A stretch of 32,000 bases of DNA from Candidatus Electronema aureum (lineage in GTDB: Bacteria > Desulfobacterota > Desulfobulbia > Desulfobulbales > Desulfobulbaceae). The stretch lies in assembly GCA_004284765.1 (NCBI GenBank), contig NQJD01000026.1, forward strand, positions 3,235-35,234, written 5' to 3'. The notes beneath the pieces were generated by a model. That model did no database searches, was not told the origin of the DNA, and saw nothing but the letters and a program-made list of their open reading frames with translations. A program made the translations under genes and the position numbers. Shown piece by piece: positions 2,263 to 17,756 of this stretch (its first letter is position 1; each line of letters starts with the position of its first letter).

Positions 2263-2631
2263 ATGGACATTTTTACTTCTGCGATCATGGCTGCGCTGGG
2301 CAATTTAGGCGTAAAGGCGGTTGGCGATGCCTATGAGGGTGTAAAAGCACTGGTTCAGCGCAAGTTCGGCGCGGACCATAAGATGACCAAAGCGATTGAA
2401 GAGCTTGAGCAAGAGCCTGACTCGGACGGCTGGAAGCTCGTTCTGCAAGAGGCAGCGAAAAAAGCTGGTGCGGACAAGGATGCCGAGATTATGAAGGCGG
2501 TTCAAGCATTGCTGGATGCGGTGAAGGCGCAGCCGGGTGGCGAAAAAGCTATTCAGCAGATCATCAATCAGCAGGTGAGCGGCAGCGGACACATCTTTTC
2601 TGGCAGTGGAAATGTAACCGTCACCAAATAA
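2263..2631 (+). CDS. Small all-helical protein with a C-terminal G-rich motif shared with the downstream NLR (Bell/HeLo-analogous effector candidate)
   Basis: GAGGAG RBS at 2251-2256, 6 nt before the ATG at 2263. N-terminal hydrophobic helix MDIFTSAIMAALGNLGV, then charged helices. The C-terminal INQQVSGSGHIFSGSGNVTVTK is encoded at 2563-2628. The stop overlaps the next start (TAATG). Confidence 0.75.
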   Translation: MDIFTSAIMAALGNLGVKAVGDAYEGVKALVQRKFGADHKMTKAIEELEQEPDSDGWKLVLQEAAKKAGADKDAEIMKAVQALLDAVKAQPGGEKAIQQIINQQVSGSGHIFSGSGNVTVTK

Positions 2632-5180
2632 TGGCTGACAAGATTGATCAGACCGTTCAGGGTAGCGGTCATATCTTTTCCGGCACCGGTGATGTTCATG
2701 TCGAACATCATCATTACCCTCCCGGAACCGCTCCTCCCTCCCCGCCGCCCCCTCTCTCCGCTAAATTCGACCTCTCCCGCCTGCCGACGACCGGTTCCGC
2801 GCTGTTTGGCAGGGACGACGAGCTTGCGCTGATTGATCGAGCCTGGCAGGAGAGCGGAACCAACGTTCTCGTGCTGACTGCGATGGGTGGCGCGGGCAAA
2901 ACATCGCTGCTGCGGAAGTGGATTGACGATAAGCGGTATCGCGGCGCGGATGCGGTGTACACTTGGTCGTTTTATTTGCAGGGATCAAGCGGTGAGGAGC
3001 AGGCTTCAGCGGCTGAATTCTTTGACAACGCGCTGGCCTGGTTCGGTCATGACGGCAGCCCGATCCGCTCGGAGCATAACCGGGGCGTGAAATTGGCTGA
3101 ATTGGTCTGCCGCCAGCGCACGCTGCTGCTGCTCGACGGCTTGGAGCCGCTCCAGCACCCCTTGGGCGGGCCGATGAACGGCGCGCTCAAGGACAAGGGC
3201 CTCGTCAGCCTGTGCGTGCAGCTTGCGGCGGACAACAACGGCCTCCTGCTCATATCCTCCCGCCAGCCGGTGATGGAGCTGAACGGCAGGCCGCATCAGC
3301 AGCAGCACGAGCTGGAGCCGCTCAACGCCGCAGCGGGCATCTCCTTGTTCCACGCCGCAGGGATCAAGGGCACCGACAAGGAGCTGACCGACACGGTGAA
3401 GGCGTACAACGGCCACGCTCTGTCCCTCAGCCTGCTGGCCAAGTACCTGAGCGAATACGAGAAGGGCGACATCCGCCAGCAGGACACGCTGCGCGGCCTG
3501 ACCGAGTTCCCGGAGGCCACCCGCGACAGCCTCCACGCCTTCAAGGTGATGTCCGCCTATGAGCGGCAGCTCTTCGGCAGCCCGGATTTGCAGATCCTCT
3601 TCTGCCTTGGCCTGTTCGACCGCCCGGCTGCGGCGGAGGTCATGTTTTTTTTGCAGAAGGAGGGCCTCGTCGGTCTGCCCAACGACGAGCGGGTGTACCG
3701 CGCCGCCTGCGGAAGGCTGCGCAAGCAAGGGCTGCTGAACAAGATCCGCCCGGAGCAGCCGCAGAACCTCGACACGCACCCGCTGGTGCGCCAGTATTTC
3801 GGCAAGAGGCTATCCGCGCTGCACCCGGAGAGCTGGCGGCAGGCGCACGTCCGGCTGTACGAGCACTTCAAGGCCGCAGCCAAGGAGCTGCCCGATACCT
3901 TGGAGGAGATGGAGCCGTTGTTTGCGGCGGTGCGGCACGGCTGCGCAGCGGGGATGCGCCAGAATGCACTGGATGAGGTGTACTGGCTGAGGATAAAGAG
4001 GCAAAAAGAGCATTACTTAACCAGTAAACTTGGCGCATTTGCTGCTGACTTAGCCGTCGTATCCTACTTTTTTGCCGTGCCGTGGAGTATGCCAGCCGCA
4101 GAATTGACCGATGATGCCAAGGCATGGATACTCATTGTGGCTGCATTCGGCCTGCGTGCCATTGGACGGCTGACCGAGGCGGCAGAGCCGATGCAGGCAG
4201 GGCTGGAAATGGGAATTCAACAGGAAGATTGGAAAGGAGCAGCGGCAGCTGCCTCCAACCTCAGCGAATTATATCTGACTGTCGGCGATGTTGCGCAGGC
4301 AGTTGCCGCTGGACGGCAGAGCGTGGATCTTGCTGATCAGAGCGGAGACGCTGCGGGGCGCATAACCTGCCGTACAACGCTCGCCGATGCCCTGCATCAG
4401 GCCGGAGAACTGGCGGATAGTCATGCCTTATTCGCTGAGGCGGAAAAAATGCAGCAGGAATGGCAGCCGGAATACGACCGGCTCTATTCATTGCGGGGAT
4501 TTCGCTATTGCGACCTGCTGCTGGCTGGCGGCGCATGGCCGGAAGTGCGCGGGAGGGCGGAGAAGGCAATAAAAATCGCGGAAAAGTATCTGGGCTTATT
4601 AGATGTTGCCTTGGACAAACTTTCTCTGGGCCGCGCCGCTGTGCAAGAAGCGGTTGTGCAAGCTGATCTGTCTATCATTTCAGGCGTTGCCCCGGACTTG
4701 GCCTGCGTTCAACCTATCAGTGGATACGTTGAACCTATCAGCCGAGGCGATGAACGTATCAGCGGATGCGTTGAACGTATTGACGGAGCCGTCGAACGTA
4801 TCGGCGGATACGATGAACCTATCCGCCGAGCCGTTGAATGGCTCGATCAGGCGGTTGATGGCCTGCGTGAAGCGGGTTATGAGGATTATTTACCGCGTGG
4901 ACTGCTTGCCCGCGCCGCGTGCCGCCGCTGGGCAGCGCATTTTTCGGCTGCGGAACAGGATTTGCGGGAATGCGAAGAGATTGCCCAGCGCGGCGGAATG
5001 CAGCTGCACCTCATTGACTGCCATCTGGAGGCCGCCAGACTTGCTCGTGCCAGCGGCAGGGCCGTTCTTGGCCTCACCGCAGAGGAGCATCTGGCCGCCG
5101 CACAGGAGGGAATCGCCAAAACCTGCTATAAACGAAGGCTGGTGGAGGCGGAGGAGATTGCGGCGATGATTCCTCAGTAG
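2631..5180 (+). CDS. NLR-like STAND ATPase: N-terminal short motif, His/Pro-rich linker, NB-ARC NTPase, TPR-like C-terminal region
   Basis: Walker A GMGGAGKTSLL, Walker B LLLLDGLE, LLISSRQ, and GHALSLSLLAKYL (equivalent of the GLPLA motif). TPR-like helices lie in the C-terminal half. The N-terminal IDQTVQGSGHIFSGTGDVHV is encoded at 2643-2702. Confidence 0.85.
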   Translation: MADKIDQTVQGSGHIFSGTGDVHVEHHHYPPGTAPPSPPPPLSAKFDLSRLPTTGSALFGRDDELALIDRAWQESGTNVLVLTAMGGAGKTSLLRKWIDDKRYRGADAVYTWSFYLQGSSGEEQASAAEFFDNALAWFGHDGSPIRSEHNRGVKLAELVCRQRTLLLLDGLEPLQHPLGGPMNGALKDKGLVSLCVQLAADNNGLLLISSRQPVMELNGRPHQQQHELEPLNAAAGISLFHAAGIKGTDKELTDTVKAYNGHALSLSLLAKYLSEYEKGDIRQQDTLRGLTEFPEATRDSLHAFKVMSAYERQLFGSPDLQILFCLGLFDRPAAAEVMFFLQKEGLVGLPNDERVYRAACGRLRKQGLLNKIRPEQPQNLDTHPLVRQYFGKRLSALHPESWRQAHVRLYEHFKAAAKELPDTLEEMEPLFAAVRHGCAAGMRQNALDEVYWLRIKRQKEHYLTSKLGAFAADLAVVSYFFAVPWSMPAAELTDDAKAWILIVAAFGLRAIGRLTEAAEPMQAGLEMGIQQEDWKGAAAAASNLSELYLTVGDVAQAVAAGRQSVDLADQSGDAAGRITCRTTLADALHQAGELADSHALFAEAEKMQQEWQPEYDRLYSLRGFRYCDLLLAGGAWPEVRGRAEKAIKIAEKYLGLLDVALDKLSLGRAAVQEAVVQADLSIISGVAPDLACVQPISGYVEPISRGDERISGCVERIDGAVERIGGYDEPIRRAVEWLDQAVDGLREAGYEDYLPRGLLARAACRRWAAHFSAAEQDLRECEEIAQRGGMQLHLIDCHLEAARLARASGRAVLGLTAEEHLAAAQEGIAKTCYKRRLVEAEEIAAMIPQ
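4710..4856 (+). repeat. In-frame 21-bp (heptad) tandem repeat, 6 good units plus 1 degenerate, inside the NLR gene
   Basis: Units start at 4710, 4731, 4752, 4773, 4794, 4815 and 4836, with consensus gaacSTATCnncgGAnnCGtt. They encode QPISGYV EPISRGD ERISGCV ERIDGAV ERIGGYD EPIRRAV EWLDQAV. Confidence 0.9.
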
Positions 5181-11680: not shown

Positions 11681-12466
11681 TTAGTACAGCGGCCTCGTTC
11701 CTTCACAAAGAGGAAACTTGGCACACCCCCAGAACTTACTTCCTGCATTTCTACCTTTCCGCGCTTCCCGCACAATCATTTCTGCGCCACAGCGTGGACA
11801 CAATTGGTATTTACTTTTCTTTTCAGTGGCAATTGCTTGTACATGTTTGACATGCAATCTGCGATTATGAAAACTATTTTTCAGTTTCCTATTCTTGATC
11901 GTATTAATAGCCGCATCTACCTGTGCCGAACTGAGTAGCTTTTTTTTCTGCGCTTTGATAAATGAAATAAATTCATCTCGAAGTACAACATTATCTGGCA
12001 TTTCTGTCTCAAAGCAACAGTTCCCTGCAAAAACAATCAAGGAGAAAATGTACTTTTCATTGATACCCAGCAGCTCATGAAAAGTTTTTGTGTGCTTGTA
12101 GTTCTGATGCAGCGGATTCTGAAAGCTATTGACGTATGCACCGATTTGCTGCGTCCAGCTCCGCTCCTGCCTGCCGCCAGAGATCATCCCTTGCATGTTT
12201 TTGGTTTCAATGACAAAAATACCATACGGAGAAACTACTACATGGTCAATCTGCGTAGTGCCGTTGGTCGTCGGCAGGAGCAAGTTACTAAAGGTATGAT
12301 AAACCTTCCTGTTCAAGTGCCGTCGGATGGCTCTGTTGATTCGTAATTCGCCGACCATCCCCTTGAACCGCCGCGATTTGAGCAACTTCACTATCGCGAT
12401 AGCGGGCAGGAGCAGCCAGAAGACTTTAAGCAGTCCGACAACGAATTGCGCGAAATCAGCAAACAT
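11681..12466 (-). CDS. NERD-domain protein with an N-terminal TM helix and a C-terminal topoisomerase-type zinc ribbon
   Basis: NERD core GELRINRAI...IDHVVVSPYGIFVIETKNMQG. C-terminal CPRCGAEMIVREARKGRNAGSKFWGCAKFPLC. The ATG at 12466 with a GGAG RBS is preferred over the TTG at 12532. Confidence 0.75.
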   Translation of the reverse strand: MFADFAQFVVGLLKVFWLLLPAIAIVKLLKSRRFKGMVGELRINRAIRRHLNRKVYHTFSNLLLPTTNGTTQIDHVVVSPYGIFVIETKNMQGMISGGRQERSWTQQIGAYVNSFQNPLHQNYKHTKTFHELLGINEKYIFSLIVFAGNCCFETEMPDNVVLRDEFISFIKAQKKKLLSSAQVDAAINTIKNRKLKNSFHNRRLHVKHVQAIATEKKSKYQLCPRCGAEMIVREARKGRNAGSKFWGCAKFPLCEGTRPLY

Positions 12467-12621
12467 GCGGCGGCTCCAGTTCGGTGGTAAGGAAAAAGCT
12501 ACAGCCTTTTTCTTACCATTCAGGCCCAGCAAAGGGCAACCGAAATTTCTTGGTTGACGTAGCGGCCTGCCCTGAATACCATGCGGCTTTCTCGCGAAAA
12601 CAAATACACGGAGGACATACT

Positions 12622-13315: not shown

Positions 13316-14320
13316 TCACTGCGCGAGGCTCTTTTTGTTTCGTCCTTTCTGCCAGATCGCCACCAACAAGGAACATGCGGCCAGCACAAGCGTAACTTGC
13401 TGAAAAATAGTGGCCTCAACCAACACCCAAGCTGTAGCCAAAAGCGGCAGCAAGGCTGCTCGCACCGTCAGTCGGATCAATCCGTGTTGGGCGATGAAGT
13501 CAGCAATCGGCGGTGAAGCCTGATAGTACCATGCAACAAAGGCCCGGCCTGGCGTGTTCGTCAGCAGGCGCAGATCACGAAATTTCCGCAAGAGGACTAC
13601 CTGTGGCTCTAAAGCACTGCCGTAGGCGGCTGTGGCAATAAAGCAACCTCCCCCGCCGCTGTCACTGCTACTACTGGTGCTGGTGGTACTACTGCTGCCG
13701 ATGCTGCTAATGCTCGTTTTTTTCATGCTCAGAATTTGCTCGGCAAAGCCTTGAGCAATAATTTGCGCACCTGTCCTTGTTGGATGTATGCCATCAGTGG
13801 TGATGTTCTTCCAATCGTTGATCACCCTACCGTAGGTATCAACCAAGACAACTTGGTTACTGGCTGCAACATTGACAATCGAGGGGTTGTAGTTTTCCGG
13901 TGCATAGTTCGATTGAGAATTCGGAGTGATGGTGGACATAATAGGCACTGCTCCGGCATTTTTGGCATGTTGCGCCATATTCTGCAAGTTGAAGCTCGTG
14001 GCTGAAGGAGAAATGCCCTCTACCACATCGTTAGCTCCTTCCATAATCACTGCATACTTTGGTTTGTTTGCTGCAAGCACAGTATCAATACGTGAAATAC
14101 CAGCTAAGGTATCTTCACCGCCAACGCCTGCATTAACCACGGTAAAAGAGGCTGAATCAAGCTTGGACTTCAGATAAACTGGATAGCCTTCATTGACTGT
14201 TGGATATCCAGCAGTGATGGAATCACCAAAACAGAGCACCACATCGGCAGCTCGGCAGTCAGTCATGCCAAAACAAAACAGTAGAATACCTGTGGCAATA
14301 CACCAGCTTCTTTTCTTCAT
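13316..14320 (-). CDS. Secreted SGNH/GDSL hydrolase with a Ser/Thr linker and a C-terminal [14 protein letters not shown] anchor-like domain
   Basis: Signal peptide, then SGNH block I (FGDSITAG), block II (GVGGEDT), GANDV and a C-terminal DGIHP. This is followed by [27 protein letters not shown] and two terminal hydrophobic helices. Confidence 0.8.
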
Positions 14321-15081
14321 TCTACTTTCTTTGCCCTCCCGTCTGCGCTTATTTCCTGTAACACATACGTGCTGGCTTGGGGGAGAAAGTCAGGAAGCAC
14401 AGGTTTGGTGTTTTCCACTGTTTCTTCTTTTTTTTCCTCAGCTTCCCGCTCTGGCGACCAGCCGTTAGTCGTGTACGTGGAAACAAGGGTTGTATATTTT
14501 CCATCACGGAAACCCTGCCAACGAACTTCTATGTTACCTTGTTCATTCAGGGCTATTTTCGGCTTAATATCGGGAGTTTCATTGGCCGCATTGATCAGCA
14601 TTGGTTTTTGCCAAGCTGAGTTTACAAAGCGACTGTAATAAATTTCATCCTGTTCACCGTCATTACCCGCCCAGACCAACCAAATAACTCCGTCATGAGC
14701 TGCCAAGGCTGAGGGAGTGATAGCCGAGCTGTGGTCTGTTGCCAACTTGATCGGTTCTGATGACCATTTATTGCCATCCTGCCCAACTAAATATTCAATA
14801 GCAATGCCGTCTGGCTGCACTGCTGACCAGAAAATCCAATGTGTACCGTTCGGCGCAATAACAAAATCTGGATGAAGGTTGTTGGCGTTGTTATTCGTCA
14901 ACTTCTGCGGTGCCTCCCAAGCATCTCCCTTGCTTGAACTGTGGTAAATTTCGTAGCGCAGTCCATCTGACTGCGACCAAACGATCTCTTTCTGTACGAC
15001 ATTCTCAGCACCTTGGCAGGGCGCAATAAGTAAGGCTGACAGTGTCAGCATCCCTAAGACAGCACGTTTTGGTAGCATCAA
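14317..15081 (-). CDS. Secreted repeat protein (four beta-propeller-blade-like repeats)
   Basis: Signal peptide [25 protein letters not shown]. Four repeats of the type h-W-x(6-10)-(I/E)-Y-x(5-8)-W-x-x-P. The stop overlaps the downstream start (ATGA on the minus strand). Confidence 0.65.
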
Positions 15082-15136
15082 GATTCACTATGAAAAGATT
15101 TTAATCAACTAATCAACAGTCCTTGCGGCAAGGAAG

Positions 15137-15769
15137 CTATTTACCCTGCACCTTTGTGAGAGCCTCGGCAAAGCCCTCTGCAATCATCTTGGAGCCGGTA
15201 TCATTGGGATGGATACCATCAAAAGTGATACTCCTCCAGCTTGAGGCCATCCTGCTGTAGGTGTTCACCAGCGTGAAACGGCCTTTATACGCCATCTGAA
15301 TGATGGAGGGATTGTAATTCTCCGGCACATAGCTTCGGCGGGCCGTGTTGGGAGTGATGGTGGACATGATCGGTATGCCGCCCGCTCTTTTGACCTGTAG
15401 GGCCATATTGTTGAGATCATAGGTAGTCGTTGATGGTGATATCCCCTCCACCACATCATTAGCACCCTCCATGATCACCACGTACTTCGGCCTGTTCGCA
15501 GCAAGCACCTTCTTCATTCGCGCCACGCCGCGATAGGTATCCTCGCCGCCTAAACCGGCGTTAACGACATTCAAGGAGGAGCTTTTCATGGATTGGAGAT
15601 AAACTGGATAGCCAATTGCCTTGTATCCCGCAGTGATGGAATCGCCAAAGCAGACCACAGTTTCTTTCGAAGCTAGAGGCGGGGGTGGCGGTGGCGGCTC
15701 AGGAGGAAGGACAACTGGTTCAGTATGGTTGAGCAAGGTGAGCAAAATGCCTACAAGCTGTTTATTCAT
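15137..15769 (-). CDS. SGNH/GDSL hydrolase, paralog of 13316-14320 lacking the C-terminal anchor
   Basis: [31 protein letters not shown] and DGIHP are collinear with the upstream paralog. A poly-Pro linker PPEPPPPPPP follows the leader. The ATG at 15769 is preferred. Confidence 0.8.
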   Translation of the reverse strand: MNKQLVGILLTLLNHTEPVVLPPEPPPPPPPLASKETVVCFGDSITAGYKAIGYPVYLQSMKSSSLNVVNAGLGGEDTYRGVARMKKVLAANRPKYVVIMEGANDVVEGISPSTTTYDLNNMALQVKRAGGIPIMSTITPNTARRSYVPENYNPSIIQMAYKGRFTLVNTYSRMASSWRSITFDGIHPNDTGSKMIAEGFAEALTKVQGK

Positions 15770-15803
15770 AGCTATGTTCTCAGAAAATATGCAACGACTA
15801 CTT

Positions 15804-17756
15804 CTACAAGACGACCTTACCGATTTCACAGAGACCGATAACAACGAAATTATACACAGAAAGGAGGAAAAGGAGAAGAACTAAGCTATGAAATACCGGT
15901 TTAATCACAATCCGAGAGCAATGATAATAGAGGATAGCAAACATCGGCAGCAGGGGAAGTGAATAGCGGCCTTGGGCTTGAAAGTCAACTGTCCAAGCGT
16001 GCCAGATCATGCCGCCGAGAAAGAACAGAGTGCAGCCTGTAGCAAGGCCCAGCAGTGTCAGGCCTGGTAGCCCGCCCCGCCATACAAGGGAGACCGCAAG
16101 CGTGAGGAGGAGCAGCAGACCGACAACTCGTACATAGTCGTAATAAGCGAAGGAGGCTGCATATTGGGTGAAGCCATAAACCCCAAAGGCAGAGCGGAAC
16201 GACTTCTCACCCCAGCGGTCAAGCTCTATAAACTGTTTAAATGTTTTCCCTCTGTCCCGCATCTGGAGATAAAAATGCTTCTCGTTAAGCGGGGTGTTGG
16301 GTTTGTATATGGGCTGTGCGTATTGCTCGCGAGCAGCTAAGATCAGCTCGCTTTTCTTGAAATCATTGATCCAAGCATCGGTGACTTTGACAACAGTAAA
16401 GAAGAGGCCACCGATGAGAACAATAGCTGTGAAGCGAGCAAGAGTTCTTTTGCTCCAGACAGGTGGTGCAACTCGTATTCGCCAGAGAAAATACAGGAAG
16501 AAGAACACATAGAGGAAGTAAAAGTTCTGCTTCTGAAACAAAAGCAGACCTAAGAGCAAGCCGAGCCAGAGAGATGCGAACCAGCCGTATTTTTTTAACT
16601 CATCCCTGAGCAAGGTGTTGAGGGTTGATCGCTCTGTAGCTAATTGATACGCAGCGAACAGACAAAGACAAACAGAGAGGGCCTCAGAATTGCAATAACT
16701 GAACACATACCATATCTGCGGAGAAATCAGCAGCGAGAGAAGGAAGAAACGAAAATCTGCCTTGCCAAAGGCATACAGCACTAAGACAAGAAAGAGCAAC
16801 ACATTGAACAGCCGCTGGGCGGAATACTGCTCAAGATGAAGCGGCTCGATGAAATGCAGATATTTCCCGACGATTAGATAATATATCTCACCTGAATGCA
16901 GGCGTGAAACCCCGTAAGCACTATACGTGTGGGTAATAGCCGGGTCGCCGACTCTCGGTGGGAGGAAGTGATCTTTGTAATACCCCGCTGATGCTATGTG
17001 CATGTTTTCATCAGGATGTGTGTTATATGCACTTAGAGTTGCCATGACCAAGATCAAGGCTAAGACAAAAGTAGCCAGCACCGGAATGAAATTCAGCTGG
17101 TTGAAAAAGAGGCGGGTGAGAAGATAACAGCCAACCGCCAAGAACAAGATACCCAGCTCATGTTCGAATTCATCAAACCAAGGAACGTGTCTCTCCATCT
17201 TTGGCAGGGAAAGCTCTACCTGCGAATCACCTTTATGAACTGCCATACTGACACCGCCTTCTGGCAGCGGAGTCATGCTTTTAACTCCAGCTATCACTCG
17301 CAGACGAGTAGCAAAATCAGCAGGACTTTGTACCTGATACAGGGGAAAGCCGCTCTGCTGGAGTGTAATCAGCCGGATGGTGATAGTAGCCGCCTTGTTT
17401 TCACTGGGGTCTAAGCGCAAACGATCAAGATGGAAAACATTGGTGACACTGATAGCATAACGGGACACGCCGGGCTTGATCAGCAGTTGCGCTGATTTCC
17501 TTTCACTGTAGTTCCCGTGCTTATCGGGCCAAAAGACCTGAAGGATAGTGCGGGTATCAGTCTCCAGCTCCAATTCAACCAATGTCCTATTGAAGATAAA
17601 GAAGTAATAGCCTGCACTGAGAACGAAGAACAGCAGGAGAACAAAGAGCCAATACTTAGGCGGTGATGCTTCATCATGAGACACTGCGACACCTGAGCCA
17701 ACTCCGTGTAAAGGCGGCGCAGTTGAAAAACGGGGGAACAGATTAAGCAGCTGCAT
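15804..17756 (-). CDS. Large polytopic membrane protein, GT-C-like (possible glycosyltransferase or polymerase), with an N-terminal extracytoplasmic module
   Basis: At least 12 hydrophobic helices. A HPDENMH loop motif follows the first TM cluster. The start is ambiguous: ATG at 17756 or TTG at 17813. Confidence 0.6.
   Translation of the reverse strand: MQLLNLFPRFSTAPPLHGVGSGVAVSHDEASPPKYWLFVLLLFFVLSAGYYFFIFNRTLVELELETDTRTILQVFWPDKHGNYSERKSAQLLIKPGVSRYAISVTNVFHLDRLRLDPSENKAATITIRLITLQQSGFPLYQVQSPADFATRLRVIAGVKSMTPLPEGGVSMAVHKGDSQVELSLPKMERHVPWFDEFEHELGILFLAVGCYLLTRLFFNQLNFIPVLATFVLALILVMATLSAYNTHPDENMHIASAGYYKDHFLPPRVGDPAITHTYSAYGVSRLHSGEIYYLIVGKYLHFIEPLHLEQYSAQRLFNVLLFLVLVLYAFGKADFRFFLLSLLISPQIWYVFSYCNSEALSVCLCLFAAYQLATERSTLNTLLRDELKKYGWFASLWLGLLLGLLLFQKQNFYFLYVFFFLYFLWRIRVAPPVWSKRTLARFTAIVLIGGLFFTVVKVTDAWINDFKKSELILAAREQYAQPIYKPNTPLNEKHFYLQMRDRGKTFKQFIELDRWGEKSFRSAFGVYGFTQYAASFAYYDYVRVVGLLLLLTLAVSLVWRGGLPGLTLLGLATGCTLFFLGGMIWHAWTVDFQAQGRYSLPLLPMFAILYYHCSRIVIKPVFHSLVLLLFLLSVYNFVVIGLCEIGKVVL

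Follow-up and report, generated by a model that had tools for sequence, protein, structure and literature searches.

Amyloid signaling by NOD-like receptors (NLRs) is known from fungi, where in HET-S/NWD2 and HELLP/PNT1 (HRAM, PP, sigma) the N-terminal motif of an NLR templates the C-terminal motif of a helical effector that targets membranes and whose gene lies next to that of the NLR, and where paralogous motif families insulate parallel pathways. In bacteria, Bell/BASS/NLR pairs have been described from filamentous Actinobacteria and Cyanobacteria (91% collinear, 42% overlapping), and BASS pairs have been reported from Actinobacteria, Cyanobacteria, Chloroflexi, Bacteroidetes and Archaea only (Dyrka et al. 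2020, bioRxiv 10.1101/2020.01.06.895854). Prion and fibril formation is on record for BASS1 and BASS3, as is seeding of the Bell-side motif by its NLR counterpart. The only bacterial case with a shown function is Bab/Agp (BASS11) of E. coli ECOR25, an abortive infection system acting via amyloid signaling, in which cells die upon phage infection and in which Bab and HET-S can replace each other (Ibarlosa et al. 2024, bioRxiv 10.1101/2024.11.07.622273). Here we analyze a stretch of 32,000 nt from Candidatus Electronema aureum (assembly GCA_004284765.1, contig NQJD01000026.1), called the window in its full length, in which two adjacent genes at 2263-5180 encode a small helical protein (gene A) and a large NLR-like NTPase (gene B) with a short peptide in common. 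Ca. Electronema aureum is a freshwater cable bacterium of the Desulfobulbaceae; filaments of cable bacteria are multicellular and centimetre-long. We read the gene pair as a two-gene regulated cell-death (immunity) module of the Bell/BASS/NLR type, with a probability of roughly 0.7. This is what the initial annotation of the locus had claimed, and the reading as an amyloid-signaling module is supported, as far as sequences and models go, by the gene architecture, the homology of the effector head, the predicted STAND-TPR fold of the sensor and the co-variation of the two motif copies across related loci.

Set beside the pairs of Dyrka et al. (2020), the locus agrees in the build of its effector (~120 aa in all, with ~100 residues in the helical head and a motif of 20-25 residues at the C-terminus), in the collinear, overlapping downstream gene for an NTPase with tetratricopeptide repeats (TPR) that bears the same motif N-terminally, in the G/N/Q/V/I-rich composition of the motif, in the multicellular host, and in the homology of the head to that dataset. 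It differs in that the host is a Desulfobulbaceae cable bacterium, in that words of its motif class (termed c1 below) are missing from the published sets, and in an allelic exchange of motif cassettes that is not described in that paper. The pair also resembles Bab/Agp: Bab is a small helical effector with a hydrophobic 'MEPIS' N-terminal helix and a C-terminal amyloid motif, and the neighboring gene has the same motif N-terminally. The Babybell head, however, is shorter (~80 aa), and Bab/Agp lies in a prophage defence hotspot, whereas the window pair lies among housekeeping genes. The fungal systems share the principle of an NLR motif acting on an adjacent-gene effector, but their NLRs are of the NACHT-WD40 type, the window motif is a single repeat, and no homology of motif or head is shown here. 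All-in-one STAND/NLR defence proteins such as Avs and bNACHT are likewise built on an NTPase-plus-repeat chassis (one of them, Avs3, was matched by the modeled structure of gene B), and relatives of gene B bear N-terminal TIR, hydrolase or nuclease effectors, as all-in-one proteins do; unlike in these, the window effector is a separate protein, presumably reached through the short shared motif.

The shared peptide of genes A and B

Gene A (2263-2631, + strand; CDV28_1265, 100% match) encodes a Bell-type effector of 122 aa and extends from ATG 2263 to TAA 2629-2631; its longest open reading frame would reach TTG 2245, but ATG 2263 was taken since the homologues begin at the equivalent Met. Gene B (2631-5180, +; CDV28_1266, 100% match) encodes an NLR-like STAND NTPase of 849 aa with TPR repeats. 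The last 22 codons of gene A (2563-2628, +) encode the effector-side motif INQQVSGSGHIFSGSGNVTVTK, of class c1, and codons 5-24 of gene B (2643-2702, +) the sensor-side motif IDQTVQGSGHIFSGTGDVHV. A previous hand count of 14 identical residues out of 20, with differing synonymous codons in 8 of these 14, proved correct, as did the one-base TAATG overlap of the two genes. The motif copies are identical at 39/60 nucleotides, with 15/20, 16/20 and 8/20 matches at codon positions 1, 2 and 3, and the NG86 method gives a nonsynonymous divergence (dN) of 0.26 and a saturated synonymous divergence (dS). Because synonymous codons differ and dS is saturated at a dN of 0.26, the motif is maintained as a peptide rather than as DNA, as the initial annotation had proposed. 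The similarity is real, and it does not go back to a recent duplication of the DNA or to gene conversion.

The motif is rich in G, S, N, Q, V and I, contains no P or L, and has a strand-Gly-strand-Gly-strand periodicity compatible with BASS and fungal amyloid motifs; 16 sensor-side sequences give the consensus I-D-Q-T-V-x-G-S-G-[NH]-[VAI]-F-S-x-x-G-[ND]-V-H-V. Its richness in G and S could favor an explanation by chance similarity of two low-complexity Gly/Ser-rich stretches. The local alignment of the two motifs scores 71, however, against a mean of 19 and a maximum of 43 in 5000 composition-preserving shuffles (z 12), and the pairing recurs in dozens of loci, so that coincidence can practically be dismissed. 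A six-frame translation of the window contained no further match to the motif. A search with the 30-aa effector tail against 1.84 billion representatives returned two repetitive proteins alone, via summed weak repeats, and was uninformative.

The effector protein

In the AlphaFold2 (AF2) model of the gene A protein, computed with 26 homologues, the head (residues 1-105; 2263-2577, +) comprises six helices over residues 3-105, with a predicted local distance difference test score (pLDDT) of 76-91 for residues 1-100 and a predicted template modeling score (pTM) of 0.67, while the tail (residues 105-122) is predicted to be disordered (pLDDT below 50). The first helix, MDIFTSAIMAALGNLG, has Asp as its second residue and is hydrophobic; the mean Kyte-Doolittle hydropathy is +1.09 for residues 1-18 vs -0.45 for residues 19-105. 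The small protein had been expected to be helical and membrane-targeting; the prediction is of a helical bundle in which the N-terminal helix is hydrophobic and the tail disordered. N-termini of relatives read MEPVIT, MDPITL or METLTA, and MEPISLI in more distant ones. Bell, Hell, Bab and Avast2 proteins share a conserved 'MEPIS' region (Ibarlosa et al. 2024, bioRxiv 10.1101/2024.11.07.622273), and for Bell effectors an acidic second or third residue has been noted (Dyrka et al. 2020, bioRxiv 10.1101/2020.01.06.895854); the gene A N-terminus fits both descriptions.

A hidden Markov model (HMM) of cable-bacterial heads matches heads from Cyanobacteria, Chloroflexi and others at 1e-15 to 1e-30. 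The matched proteins bear published BASS-type tails, e.g. the BASS3-like KYNVVFQGEVKGIQVGDRNIQ, and cyanobacterial heads with BASS3-type tails are found at E values of 1e-17 to 1e-19. Moreover, one related head (L043) matches the 80 residues preceding the motif in CCI22909.1 of the published Bell set, and PLS85526.1 of the same set resembles another type (L022). By these profile matches, the gene A head is homologous to the Bell-domain proteins of the Dyrka dataset. The head profile found designed helical repeats alone among PDB sequences (E above 0.09), and Foldseek with the head model gave no PDB match below E 2.7, i.e. no solved structure alike.

The sensor protein

The AF2 model of the gene B protein (pLDDT 82.7, pTM 0.80) begins with 41 residues predicted to be disordered (pLDDT below 50), which hold the motif and a His/Pro-rich linker, EHHHYPPGTAPPSPPPP (2703-2753, +); the linker had been claimed to separate motif and NTPase and is indeed present there. 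Directly behind the c1 sensor motif, in the window at 2703-2714 as well as in its relatives, nearly always stands (T/E)HHHY and then a Pro-rich stretch; the published BASS1 sensor-side motifs are likewise trailed by EHHHH. The His cluster could point to a dependence on metal or pH. An alpha/beta P-loop nucleotide-binding domain follows at residues ~45-290 (2763-3500, +; AF2, Foldseek, motifs), with Walker A AMGGAGKTS (2880-2906, +), Walker B LLLLDGLE (3123-3146, +), of which the DGLE is NACHT-like, and GHALSL (3411-3428, +). The NTPase module continues as a helical/winged-helix region in the AF2 secondary structure (residues ~300-480; 3528-4070, +), and a TPR-like sensor region makes up residues ~494-846 (4110-5168, +; Pfam TPR_12 and TPR_MalT, AF2 helical repeats). 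The latter is interrupted by a heptad loop, (V/D)E(P/R)I(S/G/D)G(Y/C/A), at residues ~693-736 (695-725 predicted disordered by AF2), which is encoded by a tandem repeat of 21 nt x 6.3 copies with 75% matches (4706-4838, +) and is poorly conserved among the gene B homologues.

Among Foldseek matches in the PDB, the STAND-TPR protein 6mfv is best (E 3.7e-12), followed by Apaf-1 (6.8e-7) and CED-4 (8.6e-5); the wheat resistosome and Avs3 (both ~1e-5), MalT domain III and LGN/MalT TPR structures were also matched. Pfam scores for NB-ARC (16.7 vs a cut-off of 23.5), NACHT (17.8 vs 26.7) and AAA_16 all stay below the cut-offs, and among 24 homologues of gene B, NACHT is touched in 19 and NB-ARC in 11. 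TPR_12 reaches E 3e-6 in gene B, just under the cut-off, and is matched in 20/24 homologues (best 3e-15). Gene B is therefore certainly a STAND NTPase, its sub-class being NB-ARC-like by modeled fold only, and the TPR region is presumed to be a ligand sensor. Of the earlier description as NB-ARC motifs plus TPR, the Walker A and B motifs and the TPR stood, while the NB-ARC label agrees with the predicted fold but not with the Pfam cut-offs.

Gene B has more than 3700 homologues. The close ones (57-86% identity, Electronema and Electrothrix) bear a short N-terminal motif, whereas in remote ones (45-50% identity over ~95% of the length) the place of the motif is taken by a TIR, SEFIR, alpha/beta-hydrolase, PNP_UDP, Mrr or transmembrane region. 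An all-in-one versus two-gene dichotomy has been described for fungal and bacterial NLRs, and the fused effectors of the remote homologues against the motif of gene B and its close relatives are an instance of it. Some sensor gene models are too short at the N-terminus: in Ca. Electronema sp. VV (L059 10369-10498, ACTFAK_16220) the annotated sensor start lies too far downstream, as the open frame starts where sensor and effector genes overlap in TGATG and encodes the c2 motif MPEMSQKVIGDRNIVAGGNINITL, and the database entries for four other sensors (P0113, P0121, P0122, P0130) are N-terminally truncated in a similar way.

Matched motif classes across related loci

We retrieved 68 related loci, tested co-variation on 40 non-redundant pairs of effector and downstream gene, and derived tail classes from 96 effector homologues. 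In the 40 pairs, effector tails score a mean of 67 against the N-terminus of their own neighbor vs 28 against the N-termini of other loci, and 0/10000 permutations reached the observed sum (z 16.5). The motif is hence paired in orthologous and paralogous loci and its two sides co-vary, which the initial annotation had listed among the points on which its proposal would stand or fall. Class c1, with the tail ..GSGHIFSGSGNVTVTK, is found in 56/96 effector homologues (4 of them with FSQSG), c2 with ..IGKKNIVAGVGDINIKL in 16/96 (plus one hybrid), c3 with ..GDHSKAIAVSGGQNVNITA in 12/96, and c4, a long tail with two pseudo-repeats, in 9-10/96; a BASS6-like tail class was also found (L048). In the cable-bacterial pairs with enough sequence on both sides for the class to be judged, all verified pairs were class-matched: c1 with c1, c2 with QKVIGKRNIVAGRDINITL, c3 with SGSHNNLINVSNSENVNII, c4 with SVGSSIGVKIDQAQAPIHIY and BASS6-like with BASS6-like. 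The match extends to details within and between classes. Three FSQSG effectors each partner an F[ST]Q[DSN]G sensor, while Q occurs at that position in 0/8 G-type pairs, and a c2/c1 hybrid tail (NIVAGVGNVTVVR; L064) partners a hybrid N-terminus (SNIVAGGNVIVTHNY). Between c1 loci dN/dS is ~0.3.

The c4 tails (P0046, P0075, P0094) contain two pseudo-repeats (GIGMDIGTFKAAKLEVSDVVA and KGTAVRMKEVDIEGTATFSKIGG) vs one copy on the sensor side, a 2:1 effector:sensor ratio that resembles HET-s. The c4 tail recalls HET-s r1/r2 as well as the repeated BASS4 motifs, the latter by eye. In three loci with a c4-partner sensor (L060, L061, L062) the sensor motif is in frame just behind the effector stop, but ACG replaces the ATG start of relatives (P0128), and no canonical start codon was seen 5' of the motif in these sensors; the ACG could be a non-canonical start or mark a decaying allele.

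The related pairs are collinear, with the genes overlapping or separated by gaps of 4, 57 and ~108 nt. The possibility that A and B are joined into one protein by a programmed frameshift or by read-through was rejected, as the junction differs in this way among relatives. In the genomes and metagenome contigs of cable bacteria, paralogous pairs were seen at no fewer than 6 different chromosomal sites, and one genome has at least 2 of them. Electronema sp. VV (L059 1-1756 and 10001-12876) has two pairs of differing class, c1-short and c2, ~8 kb apart, which flank a polysaccharide export/synthesis gene cluster.

An exchangeable motif cassette

Loci of other classes align to gene A up to nt 279-320 only and to gene B from nt 97-110 onwards only, and in the family the variable stretch reaches from a conserved hinge, KAQPGG, to a conserved anchor, PLSxKFDLSRLP. 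In the window, the cassette between KAQPGG of gene A and PLSAKFDLSRLP of gene B is 209-210 bp long (2542-2750, +) and covers the two motifs, the junction of the genes and the His/Pro linker. Cassette length varies with the class: 189 bp for c2, 197-210 bp for c1 (more where the genes are separated by a gap), 253 bp for c3 and 273 bp for c4/c5, with an overall range of 189-298 bp. The class of the cassette does not follow the head: tails of class c1, c2, c3 or c4 occur on heads that are 97-99% identical, head identity averages 0.57 within vs 0.60 between classes, and near-identical heads and NTPases are combined with at least 5 motif classes that do not resemble each other.

The exchange is seen directly at two chromosomal sites, where strains of different motif class differ by a replacement limited to ~160-220 bp that includes both motif copies. 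At the kdsB-like/radA site (c1 locus L066 vs c4/c5 locus L060), the flanks are 97-100% and the effector heads 92-100% identical, while tail and sensor N-terminus drop to 23-40% over ~220 bp; the NTPase is again mostly 89-99% identical, and the TPR (64-88%) is the next most divergent part. At the site after a polysaccharide-synthesis gene (c2 locus L059 vs c3 locus L068), tail and sensor N-terminus share 24-56% over ~160 bp. The tail-to-head gene order places both copies in one short stretch, so that a single recombination swaps both and keeps the match. Across the family, the motif acts as a specificity code that is matched within each pair. None of the 68 loci has the flanks of the window pair (glcD-like, rsmI); for this reason the exchange is a statement about the family rather than about the window alone.

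These data also bear on a quite different origin of the shared peptide, namely that an ancestral all-in-one Bell-NLR was split and left a duplicated junction peptide without signaling role. Bell domains fused to NLRs are known, and the fused N-terminal effector domains among the gene B relatives would fit such a history. A neutral relic would not co-vary, however, and is contradicted here by a peptide conserved despite saturated dS between the copies, by several unrelated motif classes each matched on both sides, and by the joint replacement of both copies at one locus; we consider gene fission very unlikely as the explanation.

The BASS family of the c1 motif

The window motifs were compared with the published BASS1-10 sets (PMC8086366 supplement), the pairwise scores and profiles being based on a one-sixth sample of each nr70 class set. 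The words IFSG, GNVTV and IFSQ occur in 0 of the published BASS1-10 positive sets, and NVFSG occurs twice in published sets, once in BASS2 and once in the NLR-side test set; none of the published tails listed as 'class not assigned' resembles c1. In pairwise tests BASS1 is the best class for both window motifs, with a score of 67 for the NLR-side motif (z 7.0, 0/200 shuffles) and 41 for the effector-side motif (z 3.0). The BASS1 HMM gives 8.1 bits on the window tail vs a best of 7.6 among 1080 shuffles. On the sensor side, several c1 N-termini reach 6-12 bits with it, while that of the window itself stays at 3.8 bits. No class from BASS2 to BASS10 was consistently above shuffles for the c1 motifs.

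BASS1, the most common actinobacterial family (e.g. Streptomyces coelicolor CAB66307.1), has been reported as Actinobacteria-specific (Dyrka et al. 2020, bioRxiv 10.1101/2020.01.06.895854). The pattern SG-x-G-[RH]-[VI]-[YF]-x-x-G-[DN]-x-x-[IV]-T followed by EHHH is common to c1 and BASS1, the EHHH(H/Y) lying on the NLR side (GHGRVFQSAGDQHITEHHHH vs GSGHIFSGTGDVHVEHHHY), whereas the QAGRD core of BASS1 is replaced in the window motif by SG(S/T)G(N/D). BASS1 is the nearest family, by a weak link, and c1 may be either a divergent branch of BASS1 or a new family. The suggestion of a new motif family in the initial annotation agrees with the core words missing from the BASS1-10 sets, but is at odds with the one-directional resemblance to BASS1, including the EHHH.

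Proposed mechanism and points against it

By analogy with characterized relatives, we infer that the pair forms amyloid and is toxic. A ligand would be sensed by the TPR region of gene B. The activated NTPase would, as elsewhere in the family, oligomerize and gather several N-terminal motifs, which could then fold into a cross-beta (beta-arch) nucleus. This nucleus would template the near-identical motif on the disordered C-terminal tail of gene A, and polymerization of the tails would free the hydrophobic helix 1 from the bundle, so that it may attack the membrane and the cell would die.

The pairing, co-variation and class specificity reported above show mutual recognition of the two peptides, not its mode. 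The main rival explanation is accordingly a stoichiometric docking, in which the shared peptide serves as a beta-strand tag, paired 1:1 by beta-augmentation in a resistosome-like ring without a self-propagating cross-beta polymer, and clustering alone would activate the effector. The shortness of the motif (~20 residues, single repeat) and the lack of an AF2-predicted fold are in line with docking. The composition and Gly-punctuated strand periodicity of the motif, on the other hand, match BASS and fungal amyloid motifs, and all BASS motifs tested to date formed fibrils and prions. Furthermore, the recognition is like by like, which is the prediction of templating, whereas docking would predict complementary partners. 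Docking is in our view unlikely, and templating by an amyloid fold is preferred.

Several results weigh against the pair being a Bell/BASS/NLR module of this kind. AF2 yields no structure for the motif (pLDDT below 50). The Pfam model PF20701, labelled 'HetE-N', matches gene A at threshold (25.1 bits vs a cut-off of 25) and is present in 96/96 gene A homologues, but cyanobacterial Bell heads give no PF20701 match; the BASS1 link of the motif is weak, as the reciprocal test failed and c1 HMMs showed no BASS1 enrichment over shuffles. With PADLOC 2.0 models gene A had no match and gene B a TPR match alone (E 0.029). The pair lies among housekeeping genes, with no defence island or prophage found around it, and its relatives were absent from viral contigs in a viral-contig scan. 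As regards PF20701, its use as a proxy for 'Bell' was rejected, and membership in Bell rests on the homology found with the head HMM, because cyanobacterial Bell heads lack the Pfam match.

Genomic setting

The neighboring genes encode an HflX-like GTPase fragment, an FAD-linked oxidase, RsmI, an EamA transporter, GroEL/GroES and an aminotransferase, and the GC content of the locus is unremarkable. Gene A is preceded by the Shine-Dalgarno sequence GAGGAG (2249-2254, +), 8 nt before ATG 2263. At the junction of the two genes (AATAATG region, 2628-2633, +), where stop TAA and start ATG share one base, no Shine-Dalgarno sequence of gene B is visible; the TAATG overlap without a separate ribosome-binding site suggests that the two genes are likely translationally coupled. 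A perfect 22-nt inverted repeat with a 2-nt spacer (TCATTTATATTCCAGTTGAGAT / ATCTCAACTGGAATATAAATGA) lies at 2162-2207, AT-rich and 55 nt before the effector start codon; it has no second copy in the window and was not found in 62 related loci. Possible readings are an operator, a terminator that serves neither of the flanking genes, or the scar of a small mobile element. At 6-10 kb downstream of the pair, the window holds a NERD nuclease-domain protein with a topoisomerase-type zinc ribbon (11681-12532, -) and two GDSL-lipase-like genes (13316-15844, -), neither with an obvious link to it.

The setting is relevant to what the module would be for. The same module could serve developmental or allorecognition cell death in the filament instead of phage defence, for example filament fragmentation or the sacrifice of damaged cells that leaves 'ghost cells'. 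The position among housekeeping genes and the absence of relatives from viral contigs fit such a role, as do paralogous pairs at several sites, also within one genome, and one-site alleles that differ in motif class and TPR region, like fungal het loci; cable bacteria do have ghost cells, and programmed death has come up for discussion in their case. The sole functionally tested bacterial example is antiphage, however, and divergence of the sensor repeats is equally expected under pathogen recognition, so that we regard filament cell death as possible but doubtful, and retain regulated cell death of the Bell/BASS/NLR type in its immunity form as the favored reading.

Implications

The kind of system, a Bell/BASS/NLR pair, is already known. 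New are the lineage, a motif missing from the published sets, and, at the level of the family, the exchange of cassettes together with an allelic polymorphism of motif classes. In the literature searched, we found no paper linking cable bacteria with amyloid signaling or NLRs, and no earlier description of a coupled swap of both motif copies in one recombination. The locus would extend NLR-associated amyloid signaling to the cable bacteria of the Desulfobulbaceae and independently confirm the proposed association between such modules and multicellularity; because it fits this association, it will be expected rather than surprising to a specialist. The family further offers a natural experiment on signaling specificity, in which effectors and sensors are almost the same apart from a short matched peptide, and the alleles at one site that differ by a cassette of ~160-220 bp make cross-seeding barriers testable with a minimal set of chimeras.

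Ghost cells have been described in cable-bacterium filaments. It is conceivable, if improbable, that cable bacteria keep several orthogonal amyloid channels, reshuffled between strains by swaps of a single cassette of 190-300 bp for the motifs of both partners, which underlie the sacrifice of single cells and the formation of ghost cells; if this were true, sacrificed single cells would become ghost cells in a conductive filament while the periplasmic fibres still conduct. The pairs described here provide a candidate gene set for regulated single-cell death in cable bacteria.

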